This document shows, piece by piece, positions 5,773 through 19,683 of a stretch of DNA of 32,090 bases (the stretch's first letter is position 1; each line of letters opens with the position of its first letter). The position numbers and the translations under genes were made by a program. The DNA comes from Candidatus Eiseniibacteriota bacterium (GTDB taxonomy: Bacteria > Eisenbacteria > RBG-16-71-46). The stretch spans positions 1 through 32,090 of the forward strand of contig JBEBGT010000002.1 in assembly GCA_040081365.1 (NCBI GenBank). Reading direction: 5' to 3'. The notes under the pieces were generated by a model that was given only the letters and a program-made list of their open reading frames with translations, had not been told where the DNA came from and searched no databases.

Positions 5773-6122
5773 GGTGGGTTCCCTCGCTCACGGGGGCTCG
5801 CCTTGCGAGCGATCCCCGCGTCTCTGGTGCGGCACATCATCTTGATTCGGAACGAGTGGTTCCGACTGGGACCAGTGGCTGCGTGTGCCTGTGGACAACA
5901 TCGTTCCGTGGCACCGAACGATAGGGAGGTGGCGGCCAAGTCCAAGGGGTCCGTTGGTTGACCTCGTAATAGAACAGGCGTCGCGAACCGGTTTCACATC
6001 CACGCACCTTCGATCGAGGTGATGGTCACTTGGGCGTATTCAGTCGGGCGGGTTTGCTGCGCTACTATCGCTGGTATCGAGTCGGGCCTGATGTCACGGT
6101 CGCGATCGGAGTCGCGAATCCC

Positions 6123-8945
6123 ATGCGGTATGGAGCGATGCAGATGGAGCTTCGCCAGACGCTCGTGATGGCCGCACTGATACTCATGCCGACCTGCGGG
6201 GCGACGGCCGAGCCGAGCCTGCGCTACATGCAGCCACGTACGATGGCGCCGCTGGCGGACTCCGCGAAGGATCGATTCGGCGAAGCAGCGCTCGATCCGT
6301 CATTGGAGCCTTGGCAGCGCGACATCCTCCAGCGGCTGGCTATGGGAGAACGGCCCGAGGCCTTCTGGCGCGCGGTCGGACCGCAGCAGTCAAGTCCTTC
6401 CGCCACGGGCGAAGGTGCCGAGACCTGGGTGCCGATTCCGGGGCCCGCGAGGACCGAACACAGTACGATCTACGACCCCGTGCGGAACCGGTTGATCGTA
6501 TTCGGGGGATTTACCGATACGAACCCCGTGTGCAATGACCTGTGGACGCTCAATCTGTCTGGCGAACCAGTGTGGACCGAGTTGCATCCCACAGGCCCCG
6601 TGCCTCCCGGCCGCTATGAGCACACCGCAATCTACGATCCGGTTCGAGATCGGATGATCGTGTTCGGCGGTGTTGAAGACCTTCCCTGTCAGCCCGGGCC
6701 AGGGACCTGTTTCGCACTCGCCAACGACACTTGGGCCTTGTCGCTGACAGAACTGCGTTGGACTGATTTGAGCTCCGCAAGCCCCGCTCCGACCAAGCGG
6801 ATGGCGCACACCGCCATTTACGACTCCGCACGCGATCGGATGGTCGTCTTCGGCGGGATGGCTTCCAGGGGGCGAGCGCTCAACGATGGTTGGAGTCTCA
6901 ATCTCTCGGGAACACCGGAATGGTCACTCATGATGGGCGCAGCCCCATTCCCCGGACGCAACGCGCACTCCGCGGTCTACGACAGCCGCAGGGGAAGCAT
7001 GGTGATATTCGGCGGTGTGGACTCCCGCGGACCGTGCGCAGATTCCTGGTCGCTGTCGTTCTCGGCGCTGACTTGGACTGCGATCATCCCCGCGGACACT
7101 ACTCATCCGCGTGAGCACTACCATCACTCGGCGATCTACGATCCTGTGAAGGACCGGATGCTCGTCTTCGGCGGCACGGATTGGTATCCTCCGCAGAACT
7201 ACAGGTCGCCGACAAAGGAGCAGTGGGAGTTGTCGCTGAGCTCGAACGTCTGGTCGCGGATCGACGCAGTCGGGGCGCCGCCTGGACGGATCCTGCACAC
7301 CGCGGCTTACGATCCCGTCGGTCGCCGGATGATCGTTTTCGGCGGCTCCGTCGACGACTACTGGAGGGACGGTCCGCGCCGCGGTGATACGTGGGCCTAT
7401 CACCTCGACGCGGGCACATGGTCGCAGGTCATCCCGACGAGCCGACCGCCCGAGGGCCGTGCCGGGCACGCGGCCATCTACGACCCCGTACGCCAGCGCA
7501 TGATCATCCACGGTGGCTACAACTCGAGCTGCGAGTGCTTCTTCGACGATACGTGGCAGCTCTCGCTCGGTCGGGCTCCGGTGTGGTCGCCGCTGGCAAC
7601 CGTGGGCCCGGGACCGGTCGCGCGGGCGGGTCATGTCGCGGTCTATGACCCGGCGGGTGATCGCATGATCATCTTCGGTGGCGAAGAGAAGTGCGAGGAC
7701 GGTGAGTACTGTAGTCGGCCGGGCAACGATGCCTGGGCACTGTTACTCGGCACGGCGACCCCGATGTGGTCGCCGTTGTCGCCGGCTGGCGAGCCGCCGT
7801 CCGTCCGCTCGGGGGCAACCGCCGTGTATGACCCCGTCGGCCAGCGCATGGTCGTTTACGGTGGCTTCGACTTCTACACGATCGCATCCGACGTGTGGGC
7901 GCTCGAGCTGTCGGGCTCACCGACATGGACGCCGCTCACGCCCGCGGGGGTGTGGCCGGGAGCTCGCGTGGGGCACAGTGCGATCTACGAGCCGGACGGC
8001 CGGCAGATGGTGGTGTTCGGTGGCTTCGGCGCTGGCAACGAGACGCTGGCGCTCGAGCTGGCCGCGACGCCGGTCTGGCGGGTGCTGGTGCCCGGCTCGG
8101 CGGGCGACCCCGGGCCGCCGCCGCCGCGCGCGGATCACTCGGCGGTCTACGACCCCATCGAGGGCCGCATGCTGCTCCATGGCTACGACGGCTACACGGG
8201 TGAGAACAACGACACGTGGGCGCTCACGTTCGGGCCCGGGCCGGCGTGGTCGCGCGTGGCGCTTTCCAACTCGCCGCCGTACGGCCGCGTGGACCATGCC
8301 GCGGTGTACGACCCCGTGTGGCGCCGGATGGTGGTGCATGCCGGCGACCGCGGCTATCTGTACGACACTTGGGCACTGCAGTCGGACGTCGGCATCCCGA
8401 CGCCGGTGGCGCTGGCGTTGGTGAGCGCAATCGTGAAGGACGTCGGTGTCGAGCTGGAGTGGTTCTCAGCTGACGCGCAGGCGCTCGAGGCCACACTCTA
8501 CCGGCGCACGGACGAGTCGGAGTGGCGAGCGCTGTCGAGCGTGTCGGCGGATGGCAGCGGGCACGTGCGCTTCGTGGATCGTGCGCCATGCGCGGGTGAA
8601 AGAGCCTGCTACCGGCTGGGCTACATCGAGCAGGGTGTCGAGCGGTTCAGTGCCGAGACGTGGGTGGAATTGCCCGCCCGCATGCTGGCGCTGGCCGGGC
8701 TGAGTCCGAACCCCGCCATGGGCGACCTGGTCGCGTCGTTCTCGTTAACGAGTGCGGCGCCGGCCCGGTTGTCATTGCTCGACGTGACGGGTCGCGCGGT
8801 GGCAGTGCGGGAGGTCGGGTCACTCGGCCCCGGGCGGCACACCGTCGCGCTCGGCCGCTCGAGTGGCGTCCCGGCCGGGGTCTACTGGTTGCGCCTGGCG
8901 CAGGGCGGGCGATCGTTGAGCGTGCGCGGGGTGGTGATGCGGTGA
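6123..8945 (+). CDS. Secreted Kelch-repeat protein (12 blades) with an Ig-like domain and a FlgD-Ig-like C-terminal domain
   Basis: There are twelve units of the form H[ST]A[IV]YDPxxxRM[IV]VFGG ... W between about nt 6450 and 8390. A signal-peptide-like segment (LVMAALILMPTCGATAEP) follows the ATGs at 6123, 6138 and 6144. The track ORF start at 6030 is a TTG with a non-signal-like leader. The C-terminal domain (nt 8681-8945) reads SPNPAMGDLVASFSL...LSLLDVTGRAVAV...GVYWLRLAQGG. Confidence 0.85.
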   Translation: MRYGAMQMELRQTLVMAALILMPTCGATAEPSLRYMQPRTMAPLADSAKDRFGEAALDPSLEPWQRDILQRLAMGERPEAFWRAVGPQQSSPSATGEGAETWVPIPGPARTEHSTIYDPVRNRLIVFGGFTDTNPVCNDLWTLNLSGEPVWTELHPTGPVPPGRYEHTAIYDPVRDRMIVFGGVEDLPCQPGPGTCFALANDTWALSLTELRWTDLSSASPAPTKRMAHTAIYDSARDRMVVFGGMASRGRALNDGWSLNLSGTPEWSLMMGAAPFPGRNAHSAVYDSRRGSMVIFGGVDSRGPCADSWSLSFSALTWTAIIPADTTHPREHYHHSAIYDPVKDRMLVFGGTDWYPPQNYRSPTKEQWELSLSSNVWSRIDAVGAPPGRILHTAAYDPVGRRMIVFGGSVDDYWRDGPRRGDTWAYHLDAGTWSQVIPTSRPPEGRAGHAAIYDPVRQRMIIHGGYNSSCECFFDDTWQLSLGRAPVWSPLATVGPGPVARAGHVAVYDPAGDRMIIFGGEEKCEDGEYCSRPGNDAWALLLGTATPMWSPLSPAGEPPSVRSGATAVYDPVGQRMVVYGGFDFYTIASDVWALELSGSPTWTPLTPAGVWPGARVGHSAIYEPDGRQMVVFGGFGAGNETLALELAATPVWRVLVPGSAGDPGPPPPRADHSAVYDPIEGRMLLHGYDGYTGENNDTWALTFGPGPAWSRVALSNSPPYGRVDHAAVYDPVWRRMVVHAGDRGYLYDTWALQSDVGIPTPVALALVSAIVKDVGVELEWFSADAQALEATLYRRTDESEWRALSSVSADGSGHVRFVDRAPCAGERACYRLGYIEQGVERFSAETWVELPARMLALAGLSPNPAMGDLVASFSLTSAAPARLSLLDVTGRAVAVREVGSLGPGRHTVALGRSSGVPAGVYWLRLAQGGRSLSVRGVVMR

Positions 8946-9004: not shown

Positions 9005-9105
9005 CGCTCAGCGCAGCGCGGTCACCACGATGTTGTCGTAGTACACCGTGCACTGCGCGGCGCCGCCGGTGTAGGCGGGCAGCGCGATCGCGCCGGTGAG
9101 TCGCG
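8972..9105. repeat. Direct repeat copy B of the ATPase-3'/DUF1080-3' convergent junction
   Basis: See copy A. This copy contains an 11-codon relic of the ATPase C-terminus followed by the true 3' end of the intact DUF1080 gene. Confidence 0.8.
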
Positions 9106-9676
9106 CGTTCTTCACTTCGGGGCGGTCCAGCTTGAGCTCGCCGTTCACGAACACGCGGAAGCGAGTGCCGCGTGCTTCCACGCGCACGTGGTTCCACGCG
9201 CCGTTCGCGTTGGTGGCCGAGGCGCGCCCGAGCGGCCATTCGCGGTGGTACATGAGCACGTCCTGGTAGCTGCCGCCGCGCAGGTCCACGCCGATGCCGG
9301 TGTCCTCGTGCACGCGCACCACCACGCCCTTGTCAACGCCGCGCATCATGCACACGTCCACGTCCACGGCGACGTCGGTCCACGACGTGTCGCCCGCGTA
9401 GATCAGCGAGCGCAGCTGCTTCTCGTCGGGTAGATCGGCGCGCAGCATGCCGCGCACCACGCTCCACACGCCGTCGCGGTCCGGCCGCCAGCGCTCGAGC
9501 TTGCCGCTCGAGAAGTCTTCGGCGAACAGCACGCCGGTCGCCGGCTTGTTGAAGCGCGGCGGAGTGCTGGGCAGCGCACGGCGCGTCTCATCCGGTGCGG
9601 CCCCGAGCAACAGGAGCGTCGCGCCGGCGAAGAGCGCGCTGCGGACGATTCGGGCATCCATACGGCTGCGGACCAT
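9008..9676 (-). CDS. Secreted DUF1080 / LamG-like (3-keto-disaccharide-hydrolase-fold) protein
   Basis: I chose the start at ATG 9676 (MVRSRMDARIVRSALFAGATLLLLGAAPDE, signal-peptide-like); ATG 9661 is also possible. The body (WRPDRDGVWSVVRGMLRA ... WNHVRVEARGTRFRVFVNGELK ... TVYYDNIVV) resembles jelly-roll DUF1080 proteins. The family call comes from memory of the pattern, not a search. Confidence 0.7.
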   Translation of the reverse strand: MVRSRMDARIVRSALFAGATLLLLGAAPDETRRALPSTPPRFNKPATGVLFAEDFSSGKLERWRPDRDGVWSVVRGMLRADLPDEKQLRSLIYAGDTSWTDVAVDVDVCMMRGVDKGVVVRVHEDTGIGVDLRGGSYQDVLMYHREWPLGRASATNANGAWNHVRVEARGTRFRVFVNGELKLDRPEVKNARLTGAIALPAYTGGAAQCTVYYDNIVVTALR

Positions 9677-9829
9677 GGCACCCTCCGGGAACGGAGTCCA
9701 CCCGGACCCCGGTCCACCGGGAGTATCGGCGCTCGGACACCCGAGCACGAGGGGGGCGGGGCCCGCCGGGAACGCCGCTTTTCTGCCAAGCGCGGATGGT
9801 CCGCACGCCGCCACCGGCGCACCGGATGG

Positions 9830-9851
9830 GCGGGCGGCCCGAGCCGCCCGC
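9830..9851 (-). terminator. GC-rich stem-loop 8 nt downstream of the barrel-gene stop (candidate operon terminator, no U-tract)
   Basis: gcgggcggc (9830-9838), ccga loop, gccgcccgc (9843-9851): a perfect 9-bp stem. No T/U run follows on the transcribed strand, so it is not a canonical intrinsic terminator. Confidence 0.3.
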
Positions 9852-9859
9852 GGCCAGCC

Positions 9860-12031
9860 CTACAGCCGCACGCTCACGCCCGCCTGCAACTGGCGCGTGG
9901 TGCCGGTCTGGCCCTTCTGCTGTTCCCAGCCACCGTTCACGTACCAACGGCCACCGACCGCCAGATCGAGGTCGATACCCTGCCAGCGCTCGGTCTCCTC
10001 GAACCCCGTGGCACGGTCGCGCGTGCGGCGCGTGCCCGCGTTGAACTCGAAGTGCGACTGGCCGAGCGGATCGAACCCGGCGCCGAACGACGACAGCGCA
10101 CTTTCGGTGCCCGGGCTCGTGAACGCCGAGATGCGCGTGCGCACGCTGCACTGCCAGCGCGTCAGCCGGTACACCTCACCGCTCACCGACCAGGTGTCGG
10201 AGTGATCGCCACCTGAACCGGTGCGGTACTCGGCGCTGCTGCGGATGTGCTGCTTCAACTCGAGCGTGGTGCCGCCCCAGGCGCCCTGGCGGTAGCGATC
10301 GTCGAAGTCGGTCTCGGGCGTCTCGCGGTCGCGCCACAACCGCACGCTGCGGCGATTGTCGTAGCCCGACTGCAGCGCGAGCTGGGGCGTGATCGGCACG
10401 CGCATGGTCGCGAACGTGCTGGTCCACGCCAGCATGGGCTCGCCCATGTCGCGCTTCCAGCCCGTGTTGAGGTCGAGCTCCTGCGCCACCGACGCGCTCG
10501 CGCCCTTCGCGAACCACCAGCCCTGCGCGAATGCGAAGTCGCGGTTCACCGCGGCACCCCGGCGCGAGGTCACGCCGCCCACCGACACCGACCAGCGCTG
10601 TGCGGCGAGCGGCTTCTGGTGCCACTCCGCGAATGCGCCGCCTTCCACCAGATCACCCGACCAACCGAAGCGCAGCGGCTCGGGCTGCGTCCCCGCGAAC
10701 GCTCCATAGGTGTGGCGCTGATCGCCCACTTCGAGCAGGGCGCCGTCGAACAGGCTGATCGACGCCAGCGTGGGTGACGACTGCCGGCCGAGCGTGAAGC
10801 GCCGCCGGTCGTTCTTGTCGCGGAACGTGGTGGAGGCGCGATACACGCGCGAGAACTGGTCGACCACGGTGCCGGCATCGCCCGTGCGCACGGTGCGGCG
10901 CGCGCGCACGTCGATCGAGGCGTCCATGTGGCCGCCCATGCCGTCGCGTGCATCGGCACGCAGGTCGAGCGCGGGCTGCTGGTAGCGGCTGCCGGTGGAC
11001 TCCACGCTCAGCCAGCGGCCACCGAGACGGCCGCGCAGGCGCGAGCTGCGACGCGCGGCGCGACCCTTGGGCGGCGTGAGTACGGCGGCCACGCGGATCG
11101 AGTCGCCGCGCGCACTGGCCGTGCGCAGGCTATCCTCGGTGGCGGCCTGCCGGCGAAAGTCGCTGCGATAGCGCGCCACATCGCCCAGCGCGATGGCGGC
11201 GCGCGTCCACAGCGTGTCGCACGACGCACGCTTCGACGACACGAACGTCACCCGCAACCGTGCGATCGTCTGCCCGTCGCGCAGTACCTCGACCGTGTCA
11301 CCCGCGGTGAGGCCGTCCATCTGGCCGGCGTCGACGTAGGCGCTGGCACCCGCCAGGTAGCTGATGCGCGATGTGCGCAGCGTCGCGCCACCACTCGTCG
11401 CGTTCGCGCGCGGAGCGGCACTGGCCGCGGCCGGTGATGATGCCGGCTTCGAGGTGGCCGGCGCGGGCTCCGGGTTCGTGCGCACGACTGGCGCCGCCGG
11501 CCTGGCCGCCACCGGCAACGGCGCGGGGGCGACCGCCGTGGGCACGCTCGGCGTGCGGGCCGGGCGGGTCGCGGCGGCCGAGGTTTCGCTCGGCACCGCG
11601 CCGGGGGCCTTCGTCTGCACGACGGCCGCAGGGGTACGCACCGGCGGCGTCACCGTGGCTGGAACGGGCGCCGGAGTCGTCGCGATCGGCTTCGCGGCGA
11701 CCGGAACGGTGGGTGCGGGAGAGGCGGGCGCCGCCGGCGGCACCGGCTTCACGCCCGCCGTCGATGCGTTCGTCGCGGAGCTGTCCGCCACCACCGCGGG
11801 TACGGGGCCGGCGGTCTTCGGCTTCACGTTCGTGCTCGACCACACGACATTGGCGGGTGCAGCGGGCTTGGCCTTGGTGCTGTCCGGCTTCGCGGCCGGC
11901 TTCTTGAACTGCGCGCTCGACCACACCACGGTCGCGGCCGGGGCGGTGCCGAACGACACGGTGAGCAATGCCGCCGTGATCAGGGCGGTGAGGGCTGGTG
12001 CGAGTGCGGGTCGGTCCATGGCGCGCCTCAT
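9860..12031 (-). CDS. Putative outer-membrane beta-barrel protein with a long N-terminal Pro/Ala-rich linker
   Basis: ATG 12031 overlaps the upstream cytochrome stop (ATGA, 12028-12031). Signal peptide: MRRAMDRPALAPALTALITAALLTVSFGTAPAA. A Pro/Ala/Thr/Val-rich region of ~185 aa lies at nt 11356-11914. It is followed by a small beta-rich domain and then ~440 aa of alternating hydrophobic/polar strand-like segments rich in G, R, W and Y (e.g. RWSVSVGGVTS, FAFAQGWWFAK, RWYVNGGWEQQ). The protein ends GVSVRL, not a classical C-terminal Phe. The longer track ORF (to 12946) is a frame-shadow of the cytochrome gene. Confidence 0.72.
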   Translation of the reverse strand: MRRAMDRPALAPALTALITAALLTVSFGTAPAATVVWSSAQFKKPAAKPDSTKAKPAAPANVVWSSTNVKPKTAGPVPAVVADSSATNASTAGVKPVPPAAPASPAPTVPVAAKPIATTPAPVPATVTPPVRTPAAVVQTKAPGAVPSETSAAATRPARTPSVPTAVAPAPLPVAARPAAPVVRTNPEPAPATSKPASSPAAASAAPRANATSGGATLRTSRISYLAGASAYVDAGQMDGLTAGDTVEVLRDGQTIARLRVTFVSSKRASCDTLWTRAAIALGDVARYRSDFRRQAATEDSLRTASARGDSIRVAAVLTPPKGRAARRSSRLRGRLGGRWLSVESTGSRYQQPALDLRADARDGMGGHMDASIDVRARRTVRTGDAGTVVDQFSRVYRASTTFRDKNDRRRFTLGRQSSPTLASISLFDGALLEVGDQRHTYGAFAGTQPEPLRFGWSGDLVEGGAFAEWHQKPLAAQRWSVSVGGVTSRRGAAVNRDFAFAQGWWFAKGASASVAQELDLNTGWKRDMGEPMLAWTSTFATMRVPITPQLALQSGYDNRRSVRLWRDRETPETDFDDRYRQGAWGGTTLELKQHIRSSAEYRTGSGGDHSDTWSVSGEVYRLTRWQCSVRTRISAFTSPGTESALSSFGAGFDPLGQSHFEFNAGTRRTRDRATGFEETERWQGIDLDLAVGGRWYVNGGWEQQKGQTGTTRQLQAGVSVRL

Positions 12032-13971
12032 CGGGTATGACACGAATAACAGGCCGTGCTCGTGTAGCTGTAGCCGCTGCGGCCCCGGTGGTGTCCGTCG
12101 GTCACGGCCTTGTCCGAATGCGGGTGACAGCTGAGGCAGTTGAATGTCGCGAAGTTCGTGGGCGAGCTGTGGCAGTCGGTGCACGAGTTCCACCGCCCGG
12201 CGTGACCGCGCGAGTAGATGCGGAAGTACTGCGTGTCGTGATTGAACGTCGCGCCGCTCCATCGGGTGGTGTTGTGGCAGCTTGCACACGCGGTCGCCGT
12301 GAATCCCGCAGCCGGGTGGTTCGGTACCGCGGTGCTGTAGTCGGTCATGTGGCACGACTGGCAGGTGGTGGGCTTGCCCTTGTAGATGCCATCGGCGTGA
12401 CAGCTCTGGCAGGTGGTGGCGATGTGCGCGCCGGTGAGCGGGAACAGCGTCGTGCTGTGGTTGAACGCGCCCCCGACCCAGGTGGTGGTGCCGTGGCAGC
12501 TCGCACACGACGCACTCGGGAATGCCGCGGGGGTGTGCGTGGGTACCGCCGTGGAGTAGTCCGTCGCGTGGCACGCGAAGCACGCCATGGGTTTGCCCTT
12601 GTAAACGCCGTCCCCGTGGCAGTCGGTGCACAGCGTGGTGCGATGCGCGCCGGTGAGCGCGAACGCGGTGGTGTTGTGATCGAACACCGCGCCCGCCCAA
12701 GTGGTGGTGTTGTGGCAGCTCGCGCATGCGCTGCTCGGGAACCCGGTGGGGCTGTGGGTCGGGATCGCGCCGGTATAGTCGGCCTGGTGGCAGCTGATGC
12801 ACGTGCCGGACTTGCCATTGTAGACGCCGTCGGAATGACAGCTCTGGCAGGTCGTCGTGCGGTGTGCGCCCGTGAGCGGGAAACTCGTGGCGTTGTGGTC
12901 GAACGTGGCACCCACGAAGGACGTCGTGTTGTGGCAGCTCGTGCACGATGCGGCCGCGAAGCCCGATGCCAGATGGGGCGGCTGCGCGCGGTCATAGTCG
13001 ACCTGGTGGCAGGCGATGCATGCCGTCGGCTTGCCGTTGAACACGCCGTCGGAGTGACAGCTCTGGCACGTCGTGCTGCGGTGCGCACCGGTGAGCGGGA
13101 ATGACGTCGTACTGTGGTCGAACGCCGACCCGGCCCAGCCCGTGGTGTTGTGACACGTCGCGCAGGCGCTGGCCGCGAAGCCCGACGCGGCGTGCGGGGG
13201 CTGGGCGCGGTTGTAGTCCAACTGGTGGCACGACGCGCAGTCCTTGGGCGTGCCCCGGTAGCGGCCGCCGGTGTGGCAGCTCTCGCACGATGTGGTGACG
13301 TGCGTGCCGGTGAGCGGGAAGCCCGAGCGCTGGTGGTCGAACTTGGCGTTCTCCCACGTGCCCGCCGCGTGGCAGGCCTGGCAATCGGTGGGGAAGCCGC
13401 CGCCGGCGTGGTCGGGATTCTTCGCGTTCCGATACTCGTCCATGTGACACGAGCGGCATTCGGCTTGTGTGTTCACGAACTGCAGCTGGCCCTGCGAGCT
13501 GGGCTTGTGGCAGCCCTCGCAGTCGAGCGCGGCGTGCCCGCCCGTGAGCGGGAAGCGCGTGAGCTGATGGGCGCGCACCATGGGGCCGCGGTCCACGAAG
13601 CTGCGCGCCGAATGGCAGCGCGAGCAGTCGGTGCCCATCTCACCACGGTGCGGATCCTGATGGCACGAGGCGCACTGCGTCTGCGACGCCGCGAAGTCGA
13701 GCGACGTGTGGCAGCCCAGGCACGACGCGGCGGCGTGCGCGCCGTCCAGGCGGAAGCCGAACTTGCCGTGGTCGAACTTGCTGCTGATCTTCGCCGGCTT
13801 CCAGCCATCGGAGCCGTGGCAGAGTTCACACGCCTCGCGGTACTTGCCGTGCGGGTTCTCGACGCGCGGGCGCGCTGCAGCCCACGCGCTACCCAGCGCG
13901 ATCAGCGGCAGCACGACCAGGGCGATGGCGAGCAGCCATCGGGTCGGGCGCGGGTCAAGGTCGGGCAGCAT
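12028..13971 (-). CDS. Multihaem c-type cytochrome, 25 CxxCH motifs in 647 aa
   Basis: I counted 25 CxxCH motifs in the translation. The N-terminal signal/anchor is RWLLAIALVVLPLIALGSAWAAA. c7/c3-like context motifs recur (F[DN]H...FPLTGAH...CxxCH). A GGAGG Shine-Dalgarno sequence lies 7 nt upstream of ATG 13971, inside the end of the upstream gene. Confidence 0.95.
   Translation of the reverse strand: MLPDLDPRPTRWLLAIALVVLPLIALGSAWAAARPRVENPHGKYREACELCHGSDGWKPAKISSKFDHGKFGFRLDGAHAAASCLGCHTSLDFAASQTQCASCHQDPHRGEMGTDCSRCHSARSFVDRGPMVRAHQLTRFPLTGGHAALDCEGCHKPSSQGQLQFVNTQAECRSCHMDEYRNAKNPDHAGGGFPTDCQACHAAGTWENAKFDHQRSGFPLTGTHVTTSCESCHTGGRYRGTPKDCASCHQLDYNRAQPPHAASGFAASACATCHNTTGWAGSAFDHSTTSFPLTGAHRSTTCQSCHSDGVFNGKPTACIACHQVDYDRAQPPHLASGFAAASCTSCHNTTSFVGATFDHNATSFPLTGAHRTTTCQSCHSDGVYNGKSGTCISCHQADYTGAIPTHSPTGFPSSACASCHNTTTWAGAVFDHNTTAFALTGAHRTTLCTDCHGDGVYKGKPMACFACHATDYSTAVPTHTPAAFPSASCASCHGTTTWVGGAFNHSTTLFPLTGAHIATTCQSCHADGIYKGKPTTCQSCHMTDYSTAVPNHPAAGFTATACASCHNTTRWSGATFNHDTQYFRIYSRGHAGRWNSCTDCHSSPTNFATFNCLSCHPHSDKAVTDGHHRGRSGYSYTSTACYSCHTR
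12289..13383 (-). repeat. Five exact-period (73 aa / 219 nt) tandem trihaem modules inside the 25-haem cytochrome, plus a partial sixth
   Basis: The first Cys of each module falls at residues 197, 270, 343, 416, 489 and 562, a constant 73-residue spacing. Module consensus: CxxCHNTTxWxGAxFDHxxTxFPLTGAHxxTxCQSCHxDGVYxGKPxxCxxCHxxDYxxAxPxHxxxGFxxxx. Confidence 0.9.
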
Positions 13972-13974
13972 GGG

Positions 13975-15882
13975 TCACCTCCCGGGGCGGGACTGCGCGC
14001 GCGAACGCGGCTTGCGATCGCGCGGAGGACTGGTGGTGCCGCGCGGGGCCGAGGCATCCGGCGCCGCGGGCGCATGGCACTGCTCACAACGGGTCGCGGT
14101 GGGCCGGTACACGATGGCCATGGTGCCGTCGCTCATGCGGCCGTTGCGATGGCACGCGGCGCACGGCGTGCGCGAGTGCGCACCCTGCAGCCGGAACGCC
14201 GAGTCGCGATCGTGGTCGAACTTGCGCGCCCCGATGAACGTGTTGAAGTCATGGCACGATTCACACGCGCCCTTGTCCTTGCGCACCGCGAACTGGCCGT
14301 GGTGCGTGTCGTCGTGGCAGTCCTTGCAGATGCGTGCCTTGCTGTCGAACTTGAGCGCGCGTAGTTCGGTGCTGCCCTTGAGCGTCGAACCGCCCGGCGC
14401 CTTATCGAGCTCGGCGTGGCACTTCTGGCATGGCACGGCCATGTGTGCGCCCTCGAGCGGGAACACGCAATCCGCGTGCGCGCGGCCGTCGTAGGTGGAC
14501 GGCTGGAATGCCGCCATGGAGTGGCAGGCGAGGCACGCCGCCTGATGCGGACGCAGCCCGCCCGGCGAGAACCGCCCCGCGTGGGGATCGCTGTGGCAGT
14601 CGATGCACGCCGCGCGCGCCGGCCGCATGCGCACGCGCGCCGGGCCGAGTAGCGCGGCTTCGCCGCTGCGCTCCGCCGCACGCGTGTGACACTTGCCGCA
14701 GGCCGTGTTGGCGTGCGCGCCGTCGAGCGGGTACTTGGTGCGCTGATGCTCGGGCACCGGCCAGGTCGAGGGTGAGAACGCCTTCACGTCGTGACAGGTG
14801 GCGCAGTCCGTGGGCTTGCCTGCCACCGTGGCCGTGCCCTGGTGCGCGTCCTTGTGGCAGTCCATGCAGCGCGCGAACTTGGGACGTTGACCGCCGAAGC
14901 GGGCTTCGTGGCAGCCCTCGCACTTCACGTTCGCGTGCGCGCCGCGCAATGGGTACTTGGTCTGCTCGTGGTCGAAGCCCGAGCGGTTGACCGCCTTCCA
15001 GTCGCTGGTCACGTGGCACTTGGCGCACGCACCCTTGAACCGGCCGGCATGCGGGTCCTTGTGGCACGAGATGCAATCGTTGTGCGCCACGGGCTTCCAG
15101 CGTGGCTTCCAGGCGCCCTTGGCGTCGCGACCGCTGTTCACCCCGGCCGTGGCATGGCAGGCCGCGCAGGCGGGCTTCTGGTGCGCACCCGTGAGTGGGT
15201 ATTTCGTGAGCGCGTGGTCGAAGCCGGGCGCGGGACTCCAGCGGATCTGCGAGTGGCACGAGGCGCAATCCTTGCCGAGCGCATTGTCATGCACGTCGCG
15301 ATGACAGGAGACGCACGTGGTCTCGAGGCCCAACCACGAGCGGGTGCGGTCCTTCACGCGCAGCAACGGTGCAGCTGGCGAGCGGTGCAGCGCGGGCTTG
15401 TGACAATCGCGACAGGCGAGCGAGCCATGTTTGCCCTCGAGCACGAAGCCGGCCTGCGCGTGATCGAACTTCTCCGGCGCGCCGCCTTCCCAGGCCACGA
15501 GCGCGAACGCCCGGCCACCATGGTCGGGATGGCACGACGCGCAGGCGAGCGTGGTCTTGCGTGCGTGAAAGCCGCGCTGGTTGGATCTCATCCAACCCAC
15601 CTCGGTGTGGCAATCCAGGCAGCGCTGGTCCATGCCGGCCTTGCCGCTGCCGTTCGGGTGGCAGTTGAAGCACGCCGTGGTGCCATCGAGTGAGGCATGG
15701 GGCGCGGACAGCGGGCCGGGCGAGACCTGGGCGTGCGCTCCCGCGGGCAGTCCCAGCAGCAGGCCCAGCGCGCACGCCGGTCCTGCGCCGCGCGCCCGCC
15801 ACGGGCCGCGGCCGTGCCGTGGTCGGCCCGGGGGCCTGGTCCTGGATGACGTGCCGTCGTGCGGGTCATGAGCCGCGCTCAT
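13975..15882 (-). CDS. Multihaem c-type cytochrome, 20 CxxCH motifs in 635 aa
   Basis: I counted 20 CxxCH motifs. The signal-peptide-like N-terminus is ...GPACALGLLLGLPAGAHAQ. ATG 15882 overlaps the upstream stop (ATGA, 15879-15882). The stop at 13975 lies 3 nt before the next gene's ATG. Confidence 0.93.
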   Translation of the reverse strand: MSAAHDPHDGTSSRTRPPGRPRHGRGPWRARGAGPACALGLLLGLPAGAHAQVSPGPLSAPHASLDGTTACFNCHPNGSGKAGMDQRCLDCHTEVGWMRSNQRGFHARKTTLACASCHPDHGGRAFALVAWEGGAPEKFDHAQAGFVLEGKHGSLACRDCHKPALHRSPAAPLLRVKDRTRSWLGLETTCVSCHRDVHDNALGKDCASCHSQIRWSPAPGFDHALTKYPLTGAHQKPACAACHATAGVNSGRDAKGAWKPRWKPVAHNDCISCHKDPHAGRFKGACAKCHVTSDWKAVNRSGFDHEQTKYPLRGAHANVKCEGCHEARFGGQRPKFARCMDCHKDAHQGTATVAGKPTDCATCHDVKAFSPSTWPVPEHQRTKYPLDGAHANTACGKCHTRAAERSGEAALLGPARVRMRPARAACIDCHSDPHAGRFSPGGLRPHQAACLACHSMAAFQPSTYDGRAHADCVFPLEGAHMAVPCQKCHAELDKAPGGSTLKGSTELRALKFDSKARICKDCHDDTHHGQFAVRKDKGACESCHDFNTFIGARKFDHDRDSAFRLQGAHSRTPCAACHRNGRMSDGTMAIVYRPTATRCEQCHAPAAPDASAPRGTTSPPRDRKPRSRAQSRPGR

Positions 15883-17312
15883 CCGGCCATCCGGTCGCTG
15901 CCGGAGTCGTCAGCGGCCAGCGCCTTCTTCACGATGCGCACACCGCAGCGCTCGACGAACGGGTAGGGGGCTTCGCCACCGATGCGCACGATGACATCGT
16001 CGGCCGGCACCACGACGTCGCCCGCTGCCGTGGTGAGCACGGCATCGTGCGCGCGGATCTCGCGCACCTGGCTGCCGAGCAGCAGCCGCACGTGCCCCGA
16101 CTTCACCGCCGCGTCGATCTTCGCGCGATTGCGGTCCTTCACGCGCCCGAACTCGGCGCCGCGGTACGACAGCGTGACGCGCGTGCCGTCCTGGTTGGCC
16201 AGGCCGACCGCGGACTCCACGGCGCTGTCACCCCCGCCCACCACCAGCACGGCGCGACCGGCGAACGCCTCCATCTCGACGATGTCGTAGAACACGTGCC
16301 CCTGGGCCTCGCCCGTCACGCCCAGCCGGCGCGGCGTACCACGGCGGCCCAGCGCCAGGACCACGCGCCGTGCCCGGAACCCGTGTTCGGCGGTGCGCAC
16401 CACGAAGTGCGCGCCTTCGCGCGTCACCGACTCCACGCGCGAGCCGGTGCGCACTTGCAGCCCTGTGCGCGTGATGATCGTCTGCCACACCTGCACGAGC
16501 GATTCCTTGGAGGCGTCCGACACCCAGAGGTCGCCGTACACCGGCACGCGCAGTGGTTCGGCGAACAGTACCTTGTGGCGCGGGTAGCGCGCGATGGTGT
16601 CCGCGAGCGTGCCCTGCTCCAGCACCGTGTAGCGCAGCTGGCTTGCCAGGGCTTCGAGTCCGGCTGACAGCCCGGCGGGGCCCGAGCCGACCACGACCAC
16701 GTCGAGGACGCCGGCTTCGGCCGGCGTGCGTTCCGCGCGCAACGAGGCCGCCACATGTTCCATGGCGAGCTTGCCTTCGTTGATGGCGTTCTTGATGAGC
16801 CCGCGGCCGCCGAGCTCGCCCACCACGTAGAGCCCGGGCACGTCGCGCGATTCGAAGTGCTCGTTCAGGTTGGGCACTTCCACGGTCTGCACGGCCTCGC
16901 CCGCCGTGACGAAGATCGCGCCCACGGGGCAGGCTGCCACGCAGTCGCCGTGGCCCTTGCACGCGGCCAGGTTCACCAGCGCGATCTTGTTCACGATGCT
17001 CAGTGCGCCGGGTTCGGGGCACGCGTCCACGCACGTGCCGCAACCCGCGCACTGATCGGCACGCACGATGGCATGCAGTGCGCCGCCGTCCTGGCCGGCC
17101 GCCACCGGTGTGGCGAGCGGGGCGCTGACGACCGCGAACGCCTGGAGCGGCGCCCGGCACGACGGGCAATGCGTGCTGCCGCTGGCGACCTGCGCGCGAC
17201 ACCGCGGGCAGGCCGTGCTCGCCGCCACCACACTGCCGCGTTGGCGGATGTGCTGGACGACGAACAGGGCGGTCAGGACGACGACGCCGAGCGTGGTGGG
17301 CCATTGCTGCAT
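15879..17312 (-). CDS. Membrane-anchored Zn-ribbon / 2x FeS (ferredoxin-type) / FAD-NAD(P)-binding oxidoreductase
   Basis: ATG 17312 (MQQWPTTLGVVVLTALFVVQHI, one TM helix) lies 1 nt after the upstream stop. The Zn-ribbon is CPRCx10CPSC. The ferredoxin motifs are CAGCGTCVDACP and CKGHGDCVAACP. The dinucleotide folds are DVVVVGSGPAGLSAG and AVLVVGGGDSAVESA. The track ORF start at 17540 overlaps the upstream gene and was rejected. Confidence 0.88.
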   Translation of the reverse strand: MQQWPTTLGVVVLTALFVVQHIRQRGSVVAASTACPRCRAQVASGSTHCPSCRAPLQAFAVVSAPLATPVAAGQDGGALHAIVRADQCAGCGTCVDACPEPGALSIVNKIALVNLAACKGHGDCVAACPVGAIFVTAGEAVQTVEVPNLNEHFESRDVPGLYVVGELGGRGLIKNAINEGKLAMEHVAASLRAERTPAEAGVLDVVVVGSGPAGLSAGLEALASQLRYTVLEQGTLADTIARYPRHKVLFAEPLRVPVYGDLWVSDASKESLVQVWQTIITRTGLQVRTGSRVESVTREGAHFVVRTAEHGFRARRVVLALGRRGTPRRLGVTGEAQGHVFYDIVEMEAFAGRAVLVVGGGDSAVESAVGLANQDGTRVTLSYRGAEFGRVKDRNRAKIDAAVKSGHVRLLLGSQVREIRAHDAVLTTAAGDVVVPADDVIVRIGGEAPYPFVERCGVRIVKKALAADDSGSDRMAG

Positions 17313-17313
17313 G

Positions 17314-18426
17314 TCACGGCCCCCCGAACACGTCGAGCCGAACGCCCCCCACCCACACCGCCACCGCCACGTGGATGATGACGGCGAACAGTGCGGTGAG
17401 CGCGAACGGCCGGTGCGCCACATGCCACCACGCGAACACCCGGCGCGTGGCCTCGAGCGCGCGCAACTGCTGGGCCAGCGCCATCTCGGTGCGGGCCAGC
17501 TTGAGCGCGTTGTCGAGCTCGTCGCCATGCAACGCTTCATGCCCCGCGCTGCCGTGTGCCCACTGCTTGGACAACCGGCGCAGCGTGCGCCAGCGCGTCC
17601 AGTCGTCCGAGGCCAGACGCAGGAACGTCTTCACGAGCCCGAGCCCCTCGTACGGGCGCGGGTCGAGCGCCAGGTCACGCTCGAGTTCCTGCGGCGTGAA
17701 TCCGGTGGCGACCGCGAGGTTCGTGAGCAGCGCGCGGCGCTGGCTGCCCGCCTCCTCGAGCGACAGCTCGAGCCCCGAACGGCTGCGCGGGATGTGCGTG
17801 TACAGGTAGCGCCCGACGATGCCCGACAGCGACACGATCACCATGGCGAGCATGCCCATGCCGATCAGCCCGTCGAAGTGCCAGCCCGCGTGCACCGCCG
17901 CGATCCCCGGCAGCGCCAGGCCCATGACGATATGCACGTTCATCCAGCCACCCAGCGCGCCGGTCCACGACAGCCACTTGGCCATCTTGCGCAGCGGGTA
18001 GAGCCACATGAACACGAACAGCGCCAGGGCGAGCACGCCGAACGCCAACCCCACCGGGCCGGACGACTTGAGCAGTCCGTGCAGCGGGTGACGCAGCCGC
18101 ATGGCCTCCGGCGCGAGGTAGTAGGGCAGCCCCCACGCGGTGACCAGCGCGGTGAGCCCCACGAGCACGAACAGCGGTAGGCCCGTTGCCGGATCGCGCT
18201 GCGATTCGGCCGCGGGCGCCGGGCTCACGACTCGCAGGGCAGGCGCGGCCTGCCCGCCGTCCGCGGCGGAGTGCTCCGCGTGGCCGGATCGGGGCGGCAG
18301 TGCGCCGTGCGAAATGAGTGGGGTCGAGGACAGTTTCGTGGCCTTCCGCAAGGGTTGTCGGGCGGGGTGGCAAGGAACCACAACGACTTGGGCCTCAAAG
18401 GGCCCGAGCCGCCGGCGAGAGGGCAA
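17314..18426 (-). CDS. Integral membrane protein (about 5 TM) with two Hx13H pairs; candidate dihaem b-type electron-transfer subunit
   Basis: Predicted TM helices lie at about aa 82-104, 123-145, 160-181, 186-207 and 333-358. The His pairs are H165/H179 in TM3 and H338/H352 in TM5, each with 13 intervening residues. The start is uncertain: 18426 is a TTG and only the longest option, and the first ~80 aa are not membrane-like. The stop is at 17314. Confidence 0.7.
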   Translation of the reverse strand: MPSRRRLGPFEAQVVVVPCHPARQPLRKATKLSSTPLISHGALPPRSGHAEHSAADGGQAAPALRVVSPAPAAESQRDPATGLPLFVLVGLTALVTAWGLPYYLAPEAMRLRHPLHGLLKSSGPVGLAFGVLALALFVFMWLYPLRKMAKWLSWTGALGGWMNVHIVMGLALPGIAAVHAGWHFDGLIGMGMLAMVIVSLSGIVGRYLYTHIPRSRSGLELSLEEAGSQRRALLTNLAVATGFTPQELERDLALDPRPYEGLGLVKTFLRLASDDWTRWRTLRRLSKQWAHGSAGHEALHGDELDNALKLARTEMALAQQLRALEATRRVFAWWHVAHRPFALTALFAVIIHVAVAVWVGGVRLDVFGGP

Positions 18427-18762
18427 AAGTGGTGCCGGGAAACCATCATCCGTGCATAATCAACTAGTACCGCTTCAAATGAGTCATAGTTCCCACAAAT
18501 GGCGTAAGATTATGTGTTCCATCACGTTTACGACCATGCCGGGTCAGCTCCGGTTTCCGGTGCGGCCAAGATCGTCGGTTGTTTTCGGCAACTCATGTAA
18601 GACGTTGGGACCACGTCGAGCGGTCGCCGGATTCCGGTCCCAATGCCTCCCACCCACGATCTTCGCCGCACAACCTAAGTGCTTGCAGCGGGCCCGTTCC
18701 GGGCCTTTCGGAGCGCCCCTCCCCGGTTGGAGGCCGCCCCGCCGCGTGCTAGCTTGGGTTCC
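18427..18762. promoter_or_regulatory. Divergent intergenic region with a locally AT-richer core (about 18440-18560); presumed promoters for the electron-transfer cluster and arginase
   Basis: This is the only stretch in the window that is visibly not GC-rich (e.g. catcatccgtgcataatcaactagtaccgcttcaaatgagtcatagttcccacaaatggcgtaagattatgtgttcc). It lies between divergent gene starts. I could not confidently identify a specific -35/-10 or operator. Confidence 0.3.
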
Positions 18763-19683
18763 ATGGCCAAGAAACGTCGCAACATCGGCATCATCGGAGT
18801 GCCCATCGACCTCGGCGCGGGTCGTCGTGGTGTCGACATGGGCCCGTCCGCGATCCGTATCGCCGACCTCGAGAAGCGCCTGGAAGAACTCGGGCACAAG
18901 GTCGAGGACTATGGCGATCTCGACGTGATGATCCCCGAGACGCAGAAGGTCGGCACCGGCAAGATGCGCTACAAGAAGCCCATCCTGTCGGCGTGCAAGG
19001 ACCTCATGAAGGCCGTCGACAAGTGCCTCACCGAGGGCCGCATGCCCTTGGTGCTGGGCGGTGATCACAGCATCGCGATCGGGTCCGTGGCCGGCTCCAC
19101 CAACTACTACGCGCGTCAGGGCGAGTCGCTGGGCTTGATCTGGTTCGATGCCCACGGCGACGCCAACACGCCCGAGACCACGCCGAGCGGCAACATCCAC
19201 GGCATGTCGTTGGCGGTGTCGCTCGGTTTCGGCGACCCCGACCTGGTGGGCATGGGCGGTCGCTCACCCAAGGTGCAGCCGCGCAACACGGTGCTCATCG
19301 GCATCCGCGATCTCGACAACGGCGAGCGCGACTTCCTCAAGAAGAGCGGCGTGACGTGCTACACCATGCGCGACCTCGATGAACGCGGCATGCGCGACGT
19401 GCTCGACGAGGCGATCCGCGCCGCCAGCGACGGCACGGCGGGCATCCACCTGTCGTTCGATCTCGACGTGGTGGACCCCGAGGACGCGCCCGGCACCGGT
19501 ACGCCGGTGTGGGGCGGCATCAGCTACCGCGAGGCGCACCTGGCCATGGAGATGTTCAACGACCGCGCGAACATCGTGGCGCTGGACCTGGTCGAGGTGA
19601 ACCCGGTGCTCGATTCGCAGAACATGACCGGGATCCTCGCCGCCGAACTCGCACAGAGCGCGCTGGGCAAGACGATCCTGTAG
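18763..19683 (+). CDS. rocF: Arginase (ureohydrolase family)
   Basis: The N-terminus IGIIGVPIDLGAGRRGVDMGPSAIR closely resembles bacterial arginases. The Mn-binding motifs GGDHSIAIGS, DAHGDANT and SFDLDVVDP are present. I chose the start at ATG 18763 (MAKKRRNIG...). Confidence 0.92.
   Translation: MAKKRRNIGIIGVPIDLGAGRRGVDMGPSAIRIADLEKRLEELGHKVEDYGDLDVMIPETQKVGTGKMRYKKPILSACKDLMKAVDKCLTEGRMPLVLGGDHSIAIGSVAGSTNYYARQGESLGLIWFDAHGDANTPETTPSGNIHGMSLAVSLGFGDPDLVGMGGRSPKVQPRNTVLIGIRDLDNGERDFLKKSGVTCYTMRDLDERGMRDVLDEAIRAASDGTAGIHLSFDLDVVDPEDAPGTGTPVWGGISYREAHLAMEMFNDRANIVALDLVEVNPVLDSQNMTGILAAELAQSALGKTIL

Follow-up and report, generated by a model that had tools for sequence, protein, structure and literature searches.

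The exchange of electrons between Gram-negative bacteria and minerals, electrodes or partner cells takes place through porin-cytochrome conduits, of which, to our knowledge, only the Mtr and the Geobacter Pcc types have been studied experimentally. Here we analyze a stretch of 32,090 nucleotides (nt) from a genome of Candidatus Eiseniibacteriota (contig JBEBGT010000002.1, positions 1 to 32,090; hereafter, the window). In this stretch, five adjoining genes on the reverse strand (9860-18426), denoted G1 to G5 in the order of transcription, encode a five-helix inner-membrane protein, a membrane-anchored iron-sulfur (FeS) flavoprotein, two multihaem cytochromes c and a predicted outer-membrane β-barrel protein. 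The cluster very probably specifies a trans-envelope porin-cytochrome conduit and, on balance, we lean towards the view that the five genes form one operon for a conduit of the PCC3 type that is fed by an NAD(P)H-type flavoprotein, instead of or besides quinones.

PCC3, the closest described system, was defined by He et al. (2017) in iron oxidizers and other Proteobacteria, for example, Sideroxydans lithotrophicus ES-1 and Leptothrix cholodnii SP-6, and consists of a porin, an 'extracellular' cytochrome (median of 34 haems), a 'periplasmic' cytochrome (median of 21) and an inner-membrane protein, IMP, which is hypothetical and conserved (PMC5566968). The IMP of PCC3 and PCC4 is ~300 aa long and has five transmembrane (TM) helices, with an SGXXG motif on TM4 and WX3HX13H motifs on TM3 and TM5, and in the supplement of the same study the porin of L. 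cholodnii is assigned 22 strands and the 21-24-haem cytochromes 7-8 repeats of ~60-66 aa (PMC5566968). Clusters without a porin were also described there, in which 'other redox proteins' of 412-425 aa lie beside shorter IMP-like proteins (PMC5566968). In the PCC3 found in many Gallionellaceae, as reported in 2023, the periplasmic cytochromes carry 21, 24 or 27 haems and the extracellular ones 10-35 (PMC10734462). According to a metagenome study of 2026, a gene for a ferredoxin-NADP reductase lies close to 7 of 11 PCCs in one group, and its authors proposed that the two are functionally coupled (PMC13264449).

Compared by its published description, PCC3 matches the cluster analyzed here in both architecture and motifs. 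G1 fits the IMP motif set exactly (five TM helices, SGXXG and two WX3HX13H), and the ~22 predicted strands of G5 compare with 22 in the porin of L. cholodnii. The near-fixed cytochrome carries 21-27 haems in PCC3 and 20 or 23 in 37 of 42 loci related to the cluster, the variable one 10-85 and 0-64 haems, respectively, and in both systems a haem takes up ~26-32 aa and repeats of ~60-73 aa occur within the proteins. PCC3, like the present cluster, is known only from genomes. An initial annotation of this DNA, made from the letters alone, had overlooked this precedent: the architecture matches PCC3, and G1 agrees with the IMP motif for motif (PMC5566968).

Gene structure of the cluster

The window has a G+C content of ~70%, and many of the long open reading frames (ORFs) on both of its strands are therefore spurious; the five reverse-strand ORFs at 9860-18426 are genuine genes. 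A single nucleotide (17313) separates G1 from G2 in the junction TGA-C-ATG, and the stop and start codons overlap as ATGA between G2 and G3 (15879-15882) and between G4 and G5 (12028-12031). At the G3/G4 junction, GGGAGGTGACCCATG, the gap comprises 3 nt (13972-13974), and a GGAGG Shine-Dalgarno sequence lies within the end of G3. Gene callers start G5 at its second ATG (12019), which yields a protein of 719 aa instead of the 723 aa obtained from 12031 and turns the G4/G5 overlap into an 8-nt gap. G1 has no ATG start codon; the possible starts are TTG at 18426, GTG at 18381, TTG at 18351 and GTG at 18228, and comparison with homologues favours 18351 or 18228, one of which is probably the true start.

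The initial annotation had described five tightly packed genes on the same strand, and all the gaps and ATGA overlaps that it gave are present in the sequence. Its reading of the products was also accurate: the counts of 20 and 25 CxxCH motifs are exact; the five TM helices and two Hx13H pairs ascribed to G1 correspond to five modelled helices with invariant histidines; the membrane-anchored FeS/FAD-NAD(P) oxidoreductase proposed for G2 has a TM helix, a Fer4 dicluster domain and a Pyr_redox_3 match; the c7-like trihaem modules proposed for the cytochromes agree with Cytochrome_C7 matches and with the 73-aa trihaem repeats of G4; and G5, described as a ~720-aa protein with a signal peptide and a barrel-like C-terminal region, is predicted to form a transmembrane β-barrel.

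G1, a predicted di-haem inner-membrane protein

G1 (17314..18426, reverse strand, drawn from the longest ORF start) encodes an inner-membrane protein of ~300 aa that is predicted to hold two b-type haems. It has no match in Pfam at E <= 0.01, including Ferric_reduct (PF01794), and none in NCBIfam. The AlphaFold2 (AF2) model of G1 (pLDDT 85) is all helical, with five helices of membrane length and a conserved helical insert of ~120 aa between TM4 and TM5. Lysine and arginine residues number 31 on the predicted inside versus 4 on the outside, which orients G1 with the N-terminus in and the C-terminus out and places the insert between TM4 and TM5 in the cytoplasm. Two histidine pairs, one on TM3 (H90/H104) and one on TM5 (H263/H277), are invariant among 43 close and 40 distant aligned homologues, and the motifs W86x3H90, W259x3H263 and S126-G-x-x-G130 are conserved. 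TM3 and TM5 are parallel, and the two pairs could therefore ligate one haem at each face of the membrane. Among solved structures, a Foldseek search of the Protein Data Bank (PDB) with the G1 model returned nothing below E 0.7, and a profile search of the PDB sequences yielded only a chance match to PsaF (E 0.26). G1 is an analogue of the Ferric_reduct (NOX/FRE/MsrQ) superfamily and not a demonstrated member, the shared feature being only the Hx13H pattern on TM3 and TM5.

The family to which G1 belongs is large. When the G1 profile was searched against 1.84 billion representative proteins (clusters at 50% identity), 2,710 representatives were retrieved at E <= 1e-3 and 1,508 at E <= 1e-10. 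Both WX3HX13H motifs together with SGXXG are kept in 86 of the 101 full-length representatives among the best 150, and the family members that we looked up are annotated only as 'hypothetical protein'. Four members (P0283, P0286, P0215 and P0312) have long N-terminal extensions, in which neither a confident Pfam domain nor a haem motif was found; the extension of P0215 has a sub-threshold match to DUF6572. Three apparent fusions of G1 with G2 (P0204, P0321 and P0111) were rejected, as they lack TM5 and their domains are joined by garbled sequence of low complexity. These are most likely frameshifted gene calls or assembly artefacts and, as public gene calls, could mislead surveys of domain architecture.

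G2, a membrane-anchored flavoprotein

G2 (15879..17312, reverse strand) encodes an FeS flavoprotein with a membrane anchor. From the N-terminus, a TM helix is followed by a zinc ribbon, by a Fer4 dicluster domain for two [4Fe-4S] clusters and by a TrxR/YpdA-type FAD-NAD(P)H domain, with Pfam matches to Pyr_redox_3 (1.7e-41), Pyr_redox_2 (2.5e-22) and Fer4_10 (2.5e-9). The hydrophobic helix is followed by the sequence HIRQR, which places the remainder of the protein in the cytoplasm. The best solved relatives are YpdA/Bdr (7A76, at 2.6e-27, and 7A7B) and the TrxR-type ferredoxin-NADP reductases (FNRs) 2ZBW and 3AB1. Against the YpdA equivalog model TIGR04018, G2 scores 155.4 bits, compared with a cut-off of 339.9, and YpdA lacks the TM anchor, the zinc ribbon and the ferredoxin domain, all of which are present in G2.

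When G2 was aligned with 49 homologues from related loci, all 50 sequences proved to have the TM helix, and the motif CxxCxxCxxxCP is 98-100% conserved. The second cluster motif, CxxHxxCxxxCP (residues 118-129 of G2), has its histidine in all 50 sequences, which implies that one of the predicted [4Fe-4S] clusters is His-ligated. Clusters of this kind are typical of points at which electrons exit from one protein to another. The motifs GSGPAG (FAD), GGGDSAVES (NAD(P)H) and SYRG..F.R are conserved as well. A redox-active CxxC is absent from the flavoprotein domain, where no cysteine is conserved across the alignment; given the conserved FAD and NAD(P)H motifs, G2 therefore appears to be FNR-like and not a disulfide reductase, and the sequence of its flavoprotein domain fits the TrxR-type ferredoxin-NADP reductase/YpdA family.

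G3 and G4, a fixed and a variable multihaem cytochrome

G3 (13975..15882, reverse strand) and G4 (12028..13971, reverse strand) encode secreted cytochromes c, with 20 CxxCH motifs in 635 aa and 25 in 647 aa, respectively. CxxxCH and CxxxxCH variants are absent from both, and from the composition fewer than one CxxCH would be expected by chance in the 1282 aa. In G4, with 25.9 aa per haem, the motifs are spaced 32/16/25, a pattern that is repeated about six times and defines trihaem modules of 73 aa; G3, with 31.8 aa per haem, is spaced less regularly. Both proteins have cleavable signal peptides (that of G3 ends ...AHA/QVSPGPL), and no lipobox was detected in the sequence of either.

In Pfam, G3 and G4 match only generic c7/c3 models, including Cytochrome_C7 (1.6e-26 for G3 and 4.7e-32 for G4) and, for G4, also Mtrc-MtrF_II-IV_dom (1.1e-13), and neither has a meaningful relative in the PDB. 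Their scores against the curated models of characterized multihaem cytochromes lie far below the respective cut-offs: 41.9 and 33.7 bits versus 192.2 for MtrA/DmsE (TIGR03508), 25.3 versus 209.3 for OmcA/MtrC (TIGR03507), 33.6 and 40.6 versus 400 for HmcA (NF045713), and 33.7 versus 325 for the GSU2203-family decahaem cytochromes (NF041028).

Across 42 loci for which haems were tallied, the counterpart of G3 is nearly fixed in size, with 20 haems in 17 loci and 23 in another 20. The barrel-adjacent, G4-type cytochrome ranges from 0 to 61 haems, and outside the tally cytochromes with 64 (L060) and 55 haems (L006) were found. The G4-type counts mostly follow the series 3n+1 (13, 16, 19, 22, 25, 28, 31, 34, 43, 49, 52, 55, 58, 61 and 64), into which the 25 haems of G4 fit, as do its 73-aa trihaem repeats, and whole modules of this length seem to be the units by which the variable wire is lengthened or shortened. 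In two loci (L008 and L025), a G3-type protein is the sole cytochrome beside the barrel, from which we infer that G3 is the candidate periplasm-spanning wire and could reach the barrel. G4-type proteins pair with the barrel, too, namely, in satellite pairs that consist of a barrel protein and one 13-18-haem cytochrome, without G1, G2 and G3. G4 would then be a candidate cell-surface extension, in whose evolution modules are gained and lost.

Directly after the cleavage site of G3 stands the motif Q-[IV]-S-P-G-x-L-x-x-A-H, which is conserved from Eisenbacteria to Bacteroidota and the lineage of locus L090. With this mature N-terminus, G3 may touch the RLRHPLH loop that G1 has on the periplasmic side, or the motif may supply a distal haem ligand.

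G5, a predicted outer-membrane β-barrel

G5 (9860..12031, reverse strand) encodes a protein of 723 aa that is predicted to lie in the outer membrane. Its signal peptide and Pro/Ala-rich linker (11387-12031, with a Pro/Ala stretch of ~175 aa) are followed by a small β-domain of six strands in the AF2 model (11162-11386) and, after a helix and a disordered stretch, by a β-barrel of ~22 strands and ~390 aa (9863-11041). The conserved part of the protein comprises the C-terminal 508 aa; the linker is present only in the closest relatives, and most homologues are 520-560 aa long. Neither Pfam nor NCBIfam yielded a match to G5, including MtrB_PioB. The AF2 model of the 508-aa core, computed from an alignment of 34 sequences (pLDDT 82), consists of the six-strand β-domain, the helix, the disordered stretch and, from core residue 116, a barrel of 22 long antiparallel strands. 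In a Foldseek search of the PDB, this model gave 231 matches at E <= 1e-3. All of the 50 listed matches are bacterial membrane β-barrel proteins, and the best listed are PapC/FimD usher pores, OccK/OprD porins and AlgE (E 5e-9 to 1e-6, TM-scores of ~0.3-0.45). The consensus of the G5 family ends in ...RF, an ending of the type that usually serves as the outer-membrane insertion signal. In a large protein collection, 56 relatives of G5 were detected, none of which is annotated. The barrel had initially been thought to be much larger than those of known conduits; with ~22 strands in ~390 aa it is not, the rest of the 723 aa being signal peptide, linker and the small N-terminal domain.

A distant version of the module in L006 (4681-7578, 7578-8384) has a single 55-haem cytochrome of 1402 aa, a barrel protein of 965 aa with an N-terminal AMIN domain (barrel HMM, 5e-40) and an extra secreted protein of 268 aa without a family match. 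The Pro/Ala linker and small β-domain of G5 occupy the same N-terminal position as this AMIN domain.

Conservation of the module across phyla

A scan of GTDB with one genome per species identified 143 genomes with a relative of G5, and 80 loci were kept. All of these come from metagenome-assembled genomes of Candidatus Eisenbacteria, Gemmatimonadota, Acidobacteriota (including Terriglobia and Polarisedimenticolia) and Krumholzibacteriia. Co-occurrence was tallied in 46 non-redundant loci, each extending at least 7 kb upstream from the barrel gene; these were searched with the proteins of the window, and their haem motifs were counted. A cytochrome with at least 8 haems lies immediately upstream of the barrel in all 46, G1 is present in 42, and G1 together with G2 in 40. 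In two genomes, a full cluster and a satellite pair coexist (L081 and L074 in Terriglobia, L051 and L039 in Acidobacteria).

In Eisenbacteria-type loci, the flanking genes are conserved as well, so that synteny alone is a weak argument there. In the other phyla, these flanks are absent and the gene order is altered, and the module is still found together. G2 directly follows G1 in L007, L061 and L081, among others; it is divergent and upstream in L038, L041, L072, L082, L083 and L086; and it comes after the barrel in L004, L046, L057, L077 and L092. In many loci, G1 and G2 overlap or are spaced by no more than 4 bases.

A second G1 search, with 40 distant representatives, extended these matches to Calditrichaeota, Prolixibacteraceae, Thermoanaerobaculia and a cultured isolate, Sunxiuqinia sp. 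A32 (Bacteroidota). The Sunxiuqinia locus (L089) encodes, in this order, a G1-like protein, an FeS/FAD protein, a 20-haem and a 13-haem cytochrome and a 530-aa protein that ends in ...KRF. L090 has the same five-gene order, with cytochromes of 20 and 36 haems. The barrel HMM matches the last protein of both loci over the full length of that protein (1.3e-43 in Sunxiuqinia and 2.5e-89 in L090), and the G1 HMM matches at 6e-49 and 4e-55, respectively. The Thermoanaerobaculia locus L092 contains the same set with the flavoprotein last, and the Calditrichaeota contig L091 ends after the first cytochrome; the module is probably present in Calditrichota, too. The full-length matches to the barrel HMM argue that the five-part module is a single homologous system, spread over at least five phyla.

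Proposed electron path and alternatives

These findings support the conduit interpretation that the initial annotation had put forward. None of the three outcomes that it had named as refuting was observed: the 9860-12031 product is predicted as a transmembrane β-barrel; homologues of the five genes stay together across phyla, despite differing flanks and rearranged order; and no catalytic subunit of a reductase is encoded nearby, while the cytochromes score far below the cut-offs for MtrA/DmsE, MtrC/OmcA, HmcA and the GSU2203 family. It had also set the components apart from the families of MtrCAB, which agrees with these scores and with the lack of an MtrB_PioB match in G5, and had excluded CymA/NapC, ImcH and CbcL as the inner-membrane partner, as borne out here. 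Electron transfer through the conduit, and its direction, we infer.

The path suggested by the predicted folds and motifs, with its cofactors and protein contacts, would begin with the transfer of hydride from NAD(P)H to the FAD of G2, a protein held to the membrane by one TM anchor with its domains in the cytoplasm. Single electrons would then pass from G2 to its two [4Fe-4S] clusters, one of them ligated by the invariant histidine of CxxHxxCxxxCP. The cytoplasmic helical insert of G1 would be the likely docking site of G2, and two stacked b-haems, with H90/H263 as ligands on the cytoplasmic side and H104/H277 on the periplasmic side, would carry the electrons through the membrane in a geometry like that of NOX/FRE or cytochrome b. 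The 20-haem G3 would take them across the periplasm, the ~22-strand barrel of G5 would provide passage for a cytochrome through the outer membrane, and the 25-haem G4 would extend the wire on the cell surface, by a length that differs among lineages by trihaem modules. Altogether, the putative path runs from NAD(P)H through FAD, FeS clusters, two haems b and ~45 haems c to the cell surface. Possible acceptors outside are Fe(III) and Mn(IV) minerals, humic substances, electrodes, partner cells and O2, and NAD(P)+ would be regenerated without a coupling site.

With moderate confidence, we assign to G2 the role of functional electron-entry partner of G1. We favour this entry step because G1 and G2 are linked almost universally, in three gene arrangements and with translational coupling in many loci, and because G2 has a TM anchor and an invariant motif for a His-ligated cluster and G1 a conserved cytoplasmic domain. 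Several observations weigh against such a role, or against the path as a whole. Searches of the PDB by fold and by profile reveal no relative of G1 among solved structures and no structural link to NOX, FRE, cytochrome b or FdnI, and the b-haems are assigned from motifs and topology only. No genuine fusion of G1 with G2 was found among the long members of the G1 family. One locus (L051) encodes G1 and no G2 despite a full 10 kb on both sides; in another (L069), G1 is present and no G2 was seen, and a divergent upstream copy could be cut off by the end of the locus. Four barrel loci (L039, L065, L074 and L084) are satellite pairs with only one G4-type cytochrome. PCC3 itself has been termed functionally unverified (PMC10734462; bioRxiv 10.1101/2025.02.27.639646), and a search of the literature for the module found no functional study, only a passing mention (PMC13264449).

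The alternative that survives best retains the PCC3-type conduit and makes G1 a quinol- or quinone-active cytochrome b, with G2 an accessory protein for poising, repair or an unrelated redox reaction and not the entry point; we consider it unlikely. This is the published model of the IMP, whose histidine pattern He et al. likened to NOX/FRE and cytochrome b in proposing a quinone-linked role, and the proteobacterial PCC3 was described as four genes, with no flavoprotein reported (PMC5566968). The two loci with G1 and no visible G2 agree with that model, as does a weak, sub-threshold similarity to Ni_hydr_CYTB (E 9e-4) in the G1 domain of one family member, P0283. However, G2 accompanies G1 in 40 of the 42 loci, across phyla and in three arrangements, and retains its TM anchor and the invariant ligands of its FeS clusters; the large conserved cytoplasmic domain of G1 would be superfluous in an enzyme that acts on quinones only, and no quinone-site motif was identified in G1.

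As to the direction of flow, outward is on net the likeliest, at about even odds. Mtr/Mto-type conduits and TrxR-type FNRs are reversible, and the outward direction is argued only from thermodynamics and the membrane potential. In the reverse reading, Fe(II), Fe(0), reduced minerals or cathodes would be the donors, and electrons would pass inward to G1 and on to quinones or, via G2, to NAD(P)+; we regard it as improbable, somewhat more so than the quinone-active G1. PCC3 was discovered in neutrophilic Fe(II) oxidizers, where it is a candidate iron oxidase (PMC5566968; PMC10734462; bioRxiv 10.1101/2025.02.27.639646). Against this, transfer from the outside to the inside through a transmembrane di-haem protein would oppose the membrane potential, and the Fe(II)/Fe(III) couples lie far above the NAD(P)+/NAD(P)H couple, with no coupling site encoded in the cluster. 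Outward flow would follow the membrane potential and descend in redox terms from NAD(P)H to Fe(III), Mn(IV), humic substances or O2; it is for these reasons that we favour it. Moreover, no genes for carbon fixation or terminal oxidases adjoin the cluster in the window, and the carriers identified, from Eisenbacteria, Gemmatimonadota, Acidobacteriota and Bacteroidota, are lineages of soil, sediment and wastewater. We deem it highly improbable that the cluster encodes a periplasm-only, Hmc/Tmc-like complex which links the cytochrome pool to NAD(P)(H), with G5 an unrelated porin or anchor that is not traversed: the combination of a cytochrome c, a membrane cytochrome b and a cytoplasmic FeS protein follows the logic of Hmc, and weak HmcA-like and c3/c7-like matches exist, but the G5 family lies beside a multihaem cytochrome in 46 of 46 loci, also where genes are shuffled and in the satellite pairs, scores of 34-41 bits fall far short of the HmcA cut-off of 400, genes for a periplasmic hydrogenase or a formate dehydrogenase are absent from the surroundings, and a cytochrome of up to 61-64 haems is hard to fit into the periplasm.

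Returning to a conduit fed by G2, the export of electrons from NAD(P)H would follow a NOX/FRE-like principle and, by analogy, would be akin in purpose to the dedicated NADH dehydrogenase for extracellular electron transfer (EET) in Listeria. More tentatively, G1 and G2 could constitute an unrecognized 'split NOX-like' module, in which the flavoprotein with its His-ligated cluster would feed a new family of membrane proteins with two b-haems, and the five genes together a quinone-independent NAD(P)H:extracellular-acceptor oxidoreductase that Eisenbacteria, Gemmatimonadota, Acidobacteriota, Krumholzibacteriia, Bacteroidota and probably Calditrichota would have in common.

Operon ends and flanking genes

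The only sizeable non-coding gap that adjoins the cluster is the divergent intergenic region between G1 and an arginase gene (18427..18678), presumably the promoter region of the operon; a scan of this region found no sigma-70-type consensus. Downstream, the GC-rich hairpin GGGCGGC-UCGG-GCCGCCC (9832..9849, reverse strand) lies 11 nt past the stop codon of G5. The initial annotation had reported this hairpin, which is indeed present and folds. Its region is no more stable than shuffles of the same composition (z = 0.2), and it has no T-tract. The scan detected no intrinsic terminator at the ends of the operon, and the hairpin is probably not a meaningful one.

The neighbouring genes in the window encode an arginase (18679-19683, forward strand, divergent to G1), a DUF1080/3-keto-disaccharide-hydrolase-type protein (9008-9814, downstream of the cluster), a Kelch protein, a P-type ATPase (198-2858) and peptidases; no catalytic reductase subunit, periplasmic hydrogenase or formate dehydrogenase is encoded near the cluster. 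The genes for the DUF1080 protein, arginase and ATPase flank every Eisenbacteria-type locus and never those of Gemmatimonadota, Acidobacteriota or Bacteroidota. They were rejected as members of the system, their synteny being confined to the Eisenbacteria-type loci and a matter of lineage.

Between the DUF1080 and ATPase genes, which adjoin each other in other Eisenbacteria loci, the window contains two large genes (2992-8945); the product of one, 926 aa long, ends in an FlgD_ig-type domain at its C-terminus, and that of the other is a Kelch β-propeller protein of 971 aa. The G+C content falls to ~63% at 4000-7000, from ~70% elsewhere in the window, and this drop, together with the extra genes, suggests an insertion or a variable region.

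Implications

Clusters of the PCC3 type are widespread, and the cluster analyzed here bears on the way in which they are linked, at the inner membrane, to metabolism. Together with ~140 species-level relatives, it indicates that a PCC3-like architecture is common well outside Proteobacteria. Its inner-membrane protein G1 belongs to a large unannotated family, and in these lineages an FeS flavoprotein of the NAD(P)H type almost invariably accompanies it. Direct export of electrons from NAD(P)H is thus a testable alternative to the quinone-linked model, with a bearing on how abundant heterotrophs of soil, sediment and wastewater dispose of reductant and take part in the cycling of Fe, Mn and humic substances. 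If the proposal is true, a major route by which electrons leave cells in soils and sediments has been overlooked, and the split NOX-like module would also supply the long-missing inner-membrane step of the PCC3 and PCC4 clusters. The cultured carrier, Sunxiuqinia sp. A32, opens this hypothesis to experiment. The variable cytochromes, which range in trihaem steps from none to over 60 haems, also offer a natural series for the evolution of protein-wire length.

Comparison with known systems

MtrCAB of Shewanella and MtoAB/PioAB share with the cluster the logic of a periplasmic multihaem cytochrome, an outer-membrane β-barrel and an optional surface cytochrome; the second cytochrome is missing from MtoAB/PioAB, as it is from some of the loci related to the cluster. 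These systems differ in haem number (10 and 10 versus 20 and 25), MtrCAB has a barrel of 26 strands versus ~22 in G5, and electrons enter it at the inner membrane through CymA/NapC, whereas the window contains no NapC/CymA-like gene. The cluster accordingly falls outside the MtrCAB/MtoAB/PioAB group. The OmaB-OmbB-OmcB/ExtABCD conduits of Geobacter have, as here, a barrel, of ~20 strands, flanked by c7/c3-like multihaem cytochromes. They rely on quinol dehydrogenases of the ImcH, CbcL or Cbc type, none of which is encoded in the cluster. A published search with an OmbB HMM picked up a PCC3-like cluster of Burkholderiales with a 24-haem and a 49-haem cytochrome.

The Hmc complex of sulfate reducers combines a multihaem cytochrome c with a membrane cytochrome b and a cytoplasmic FeS protein. 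Hmc/Tmc complexes have no barrel and use HdrD-like proteins, whereas the cytoplasmic subunit here is TrxR-like; no HmcB-F-like genes were found in the window, and by sequence the cluster does not belong to the Hmc/Tmc complexes. In Listeria, Ndh2-EetA/EetB-PplA reserves a dedicated NADH dehydrogenase for an extracellular electron-transfer branch, which, unlike the cluster analyzed here, uses the quinone pool and operates in cells without an outer membrane.

With NOX/FRE, the cluster would share the principle of passing electrons from NAD(P)H to flavin, then over two bis-His b-haems (on TM3 and TM5, with Hx13H spacing) to an outside acceptor, a route that is electrogenic and independent of quinones, as is proposed for G1 and G2. 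NOX/FRE proteins differ in having six TM helices versus five in G1 and a fused FNR-type dehydrogenase domain in place of a separate TrxR-type FeS polypeptide (G2), and they deliver electrons directly to O2 or Fe(III), not to a wire of cytochromes c. The closest counterpart remains PCC3, described as four genes in Proteobacteria with a quinone-linked model, whereas here G2 is a fifth member in 40 of the 42 loci with G1. The system is of the PCC3 kind, itself purely predicted, and not categorically new; its under-described part is G2.

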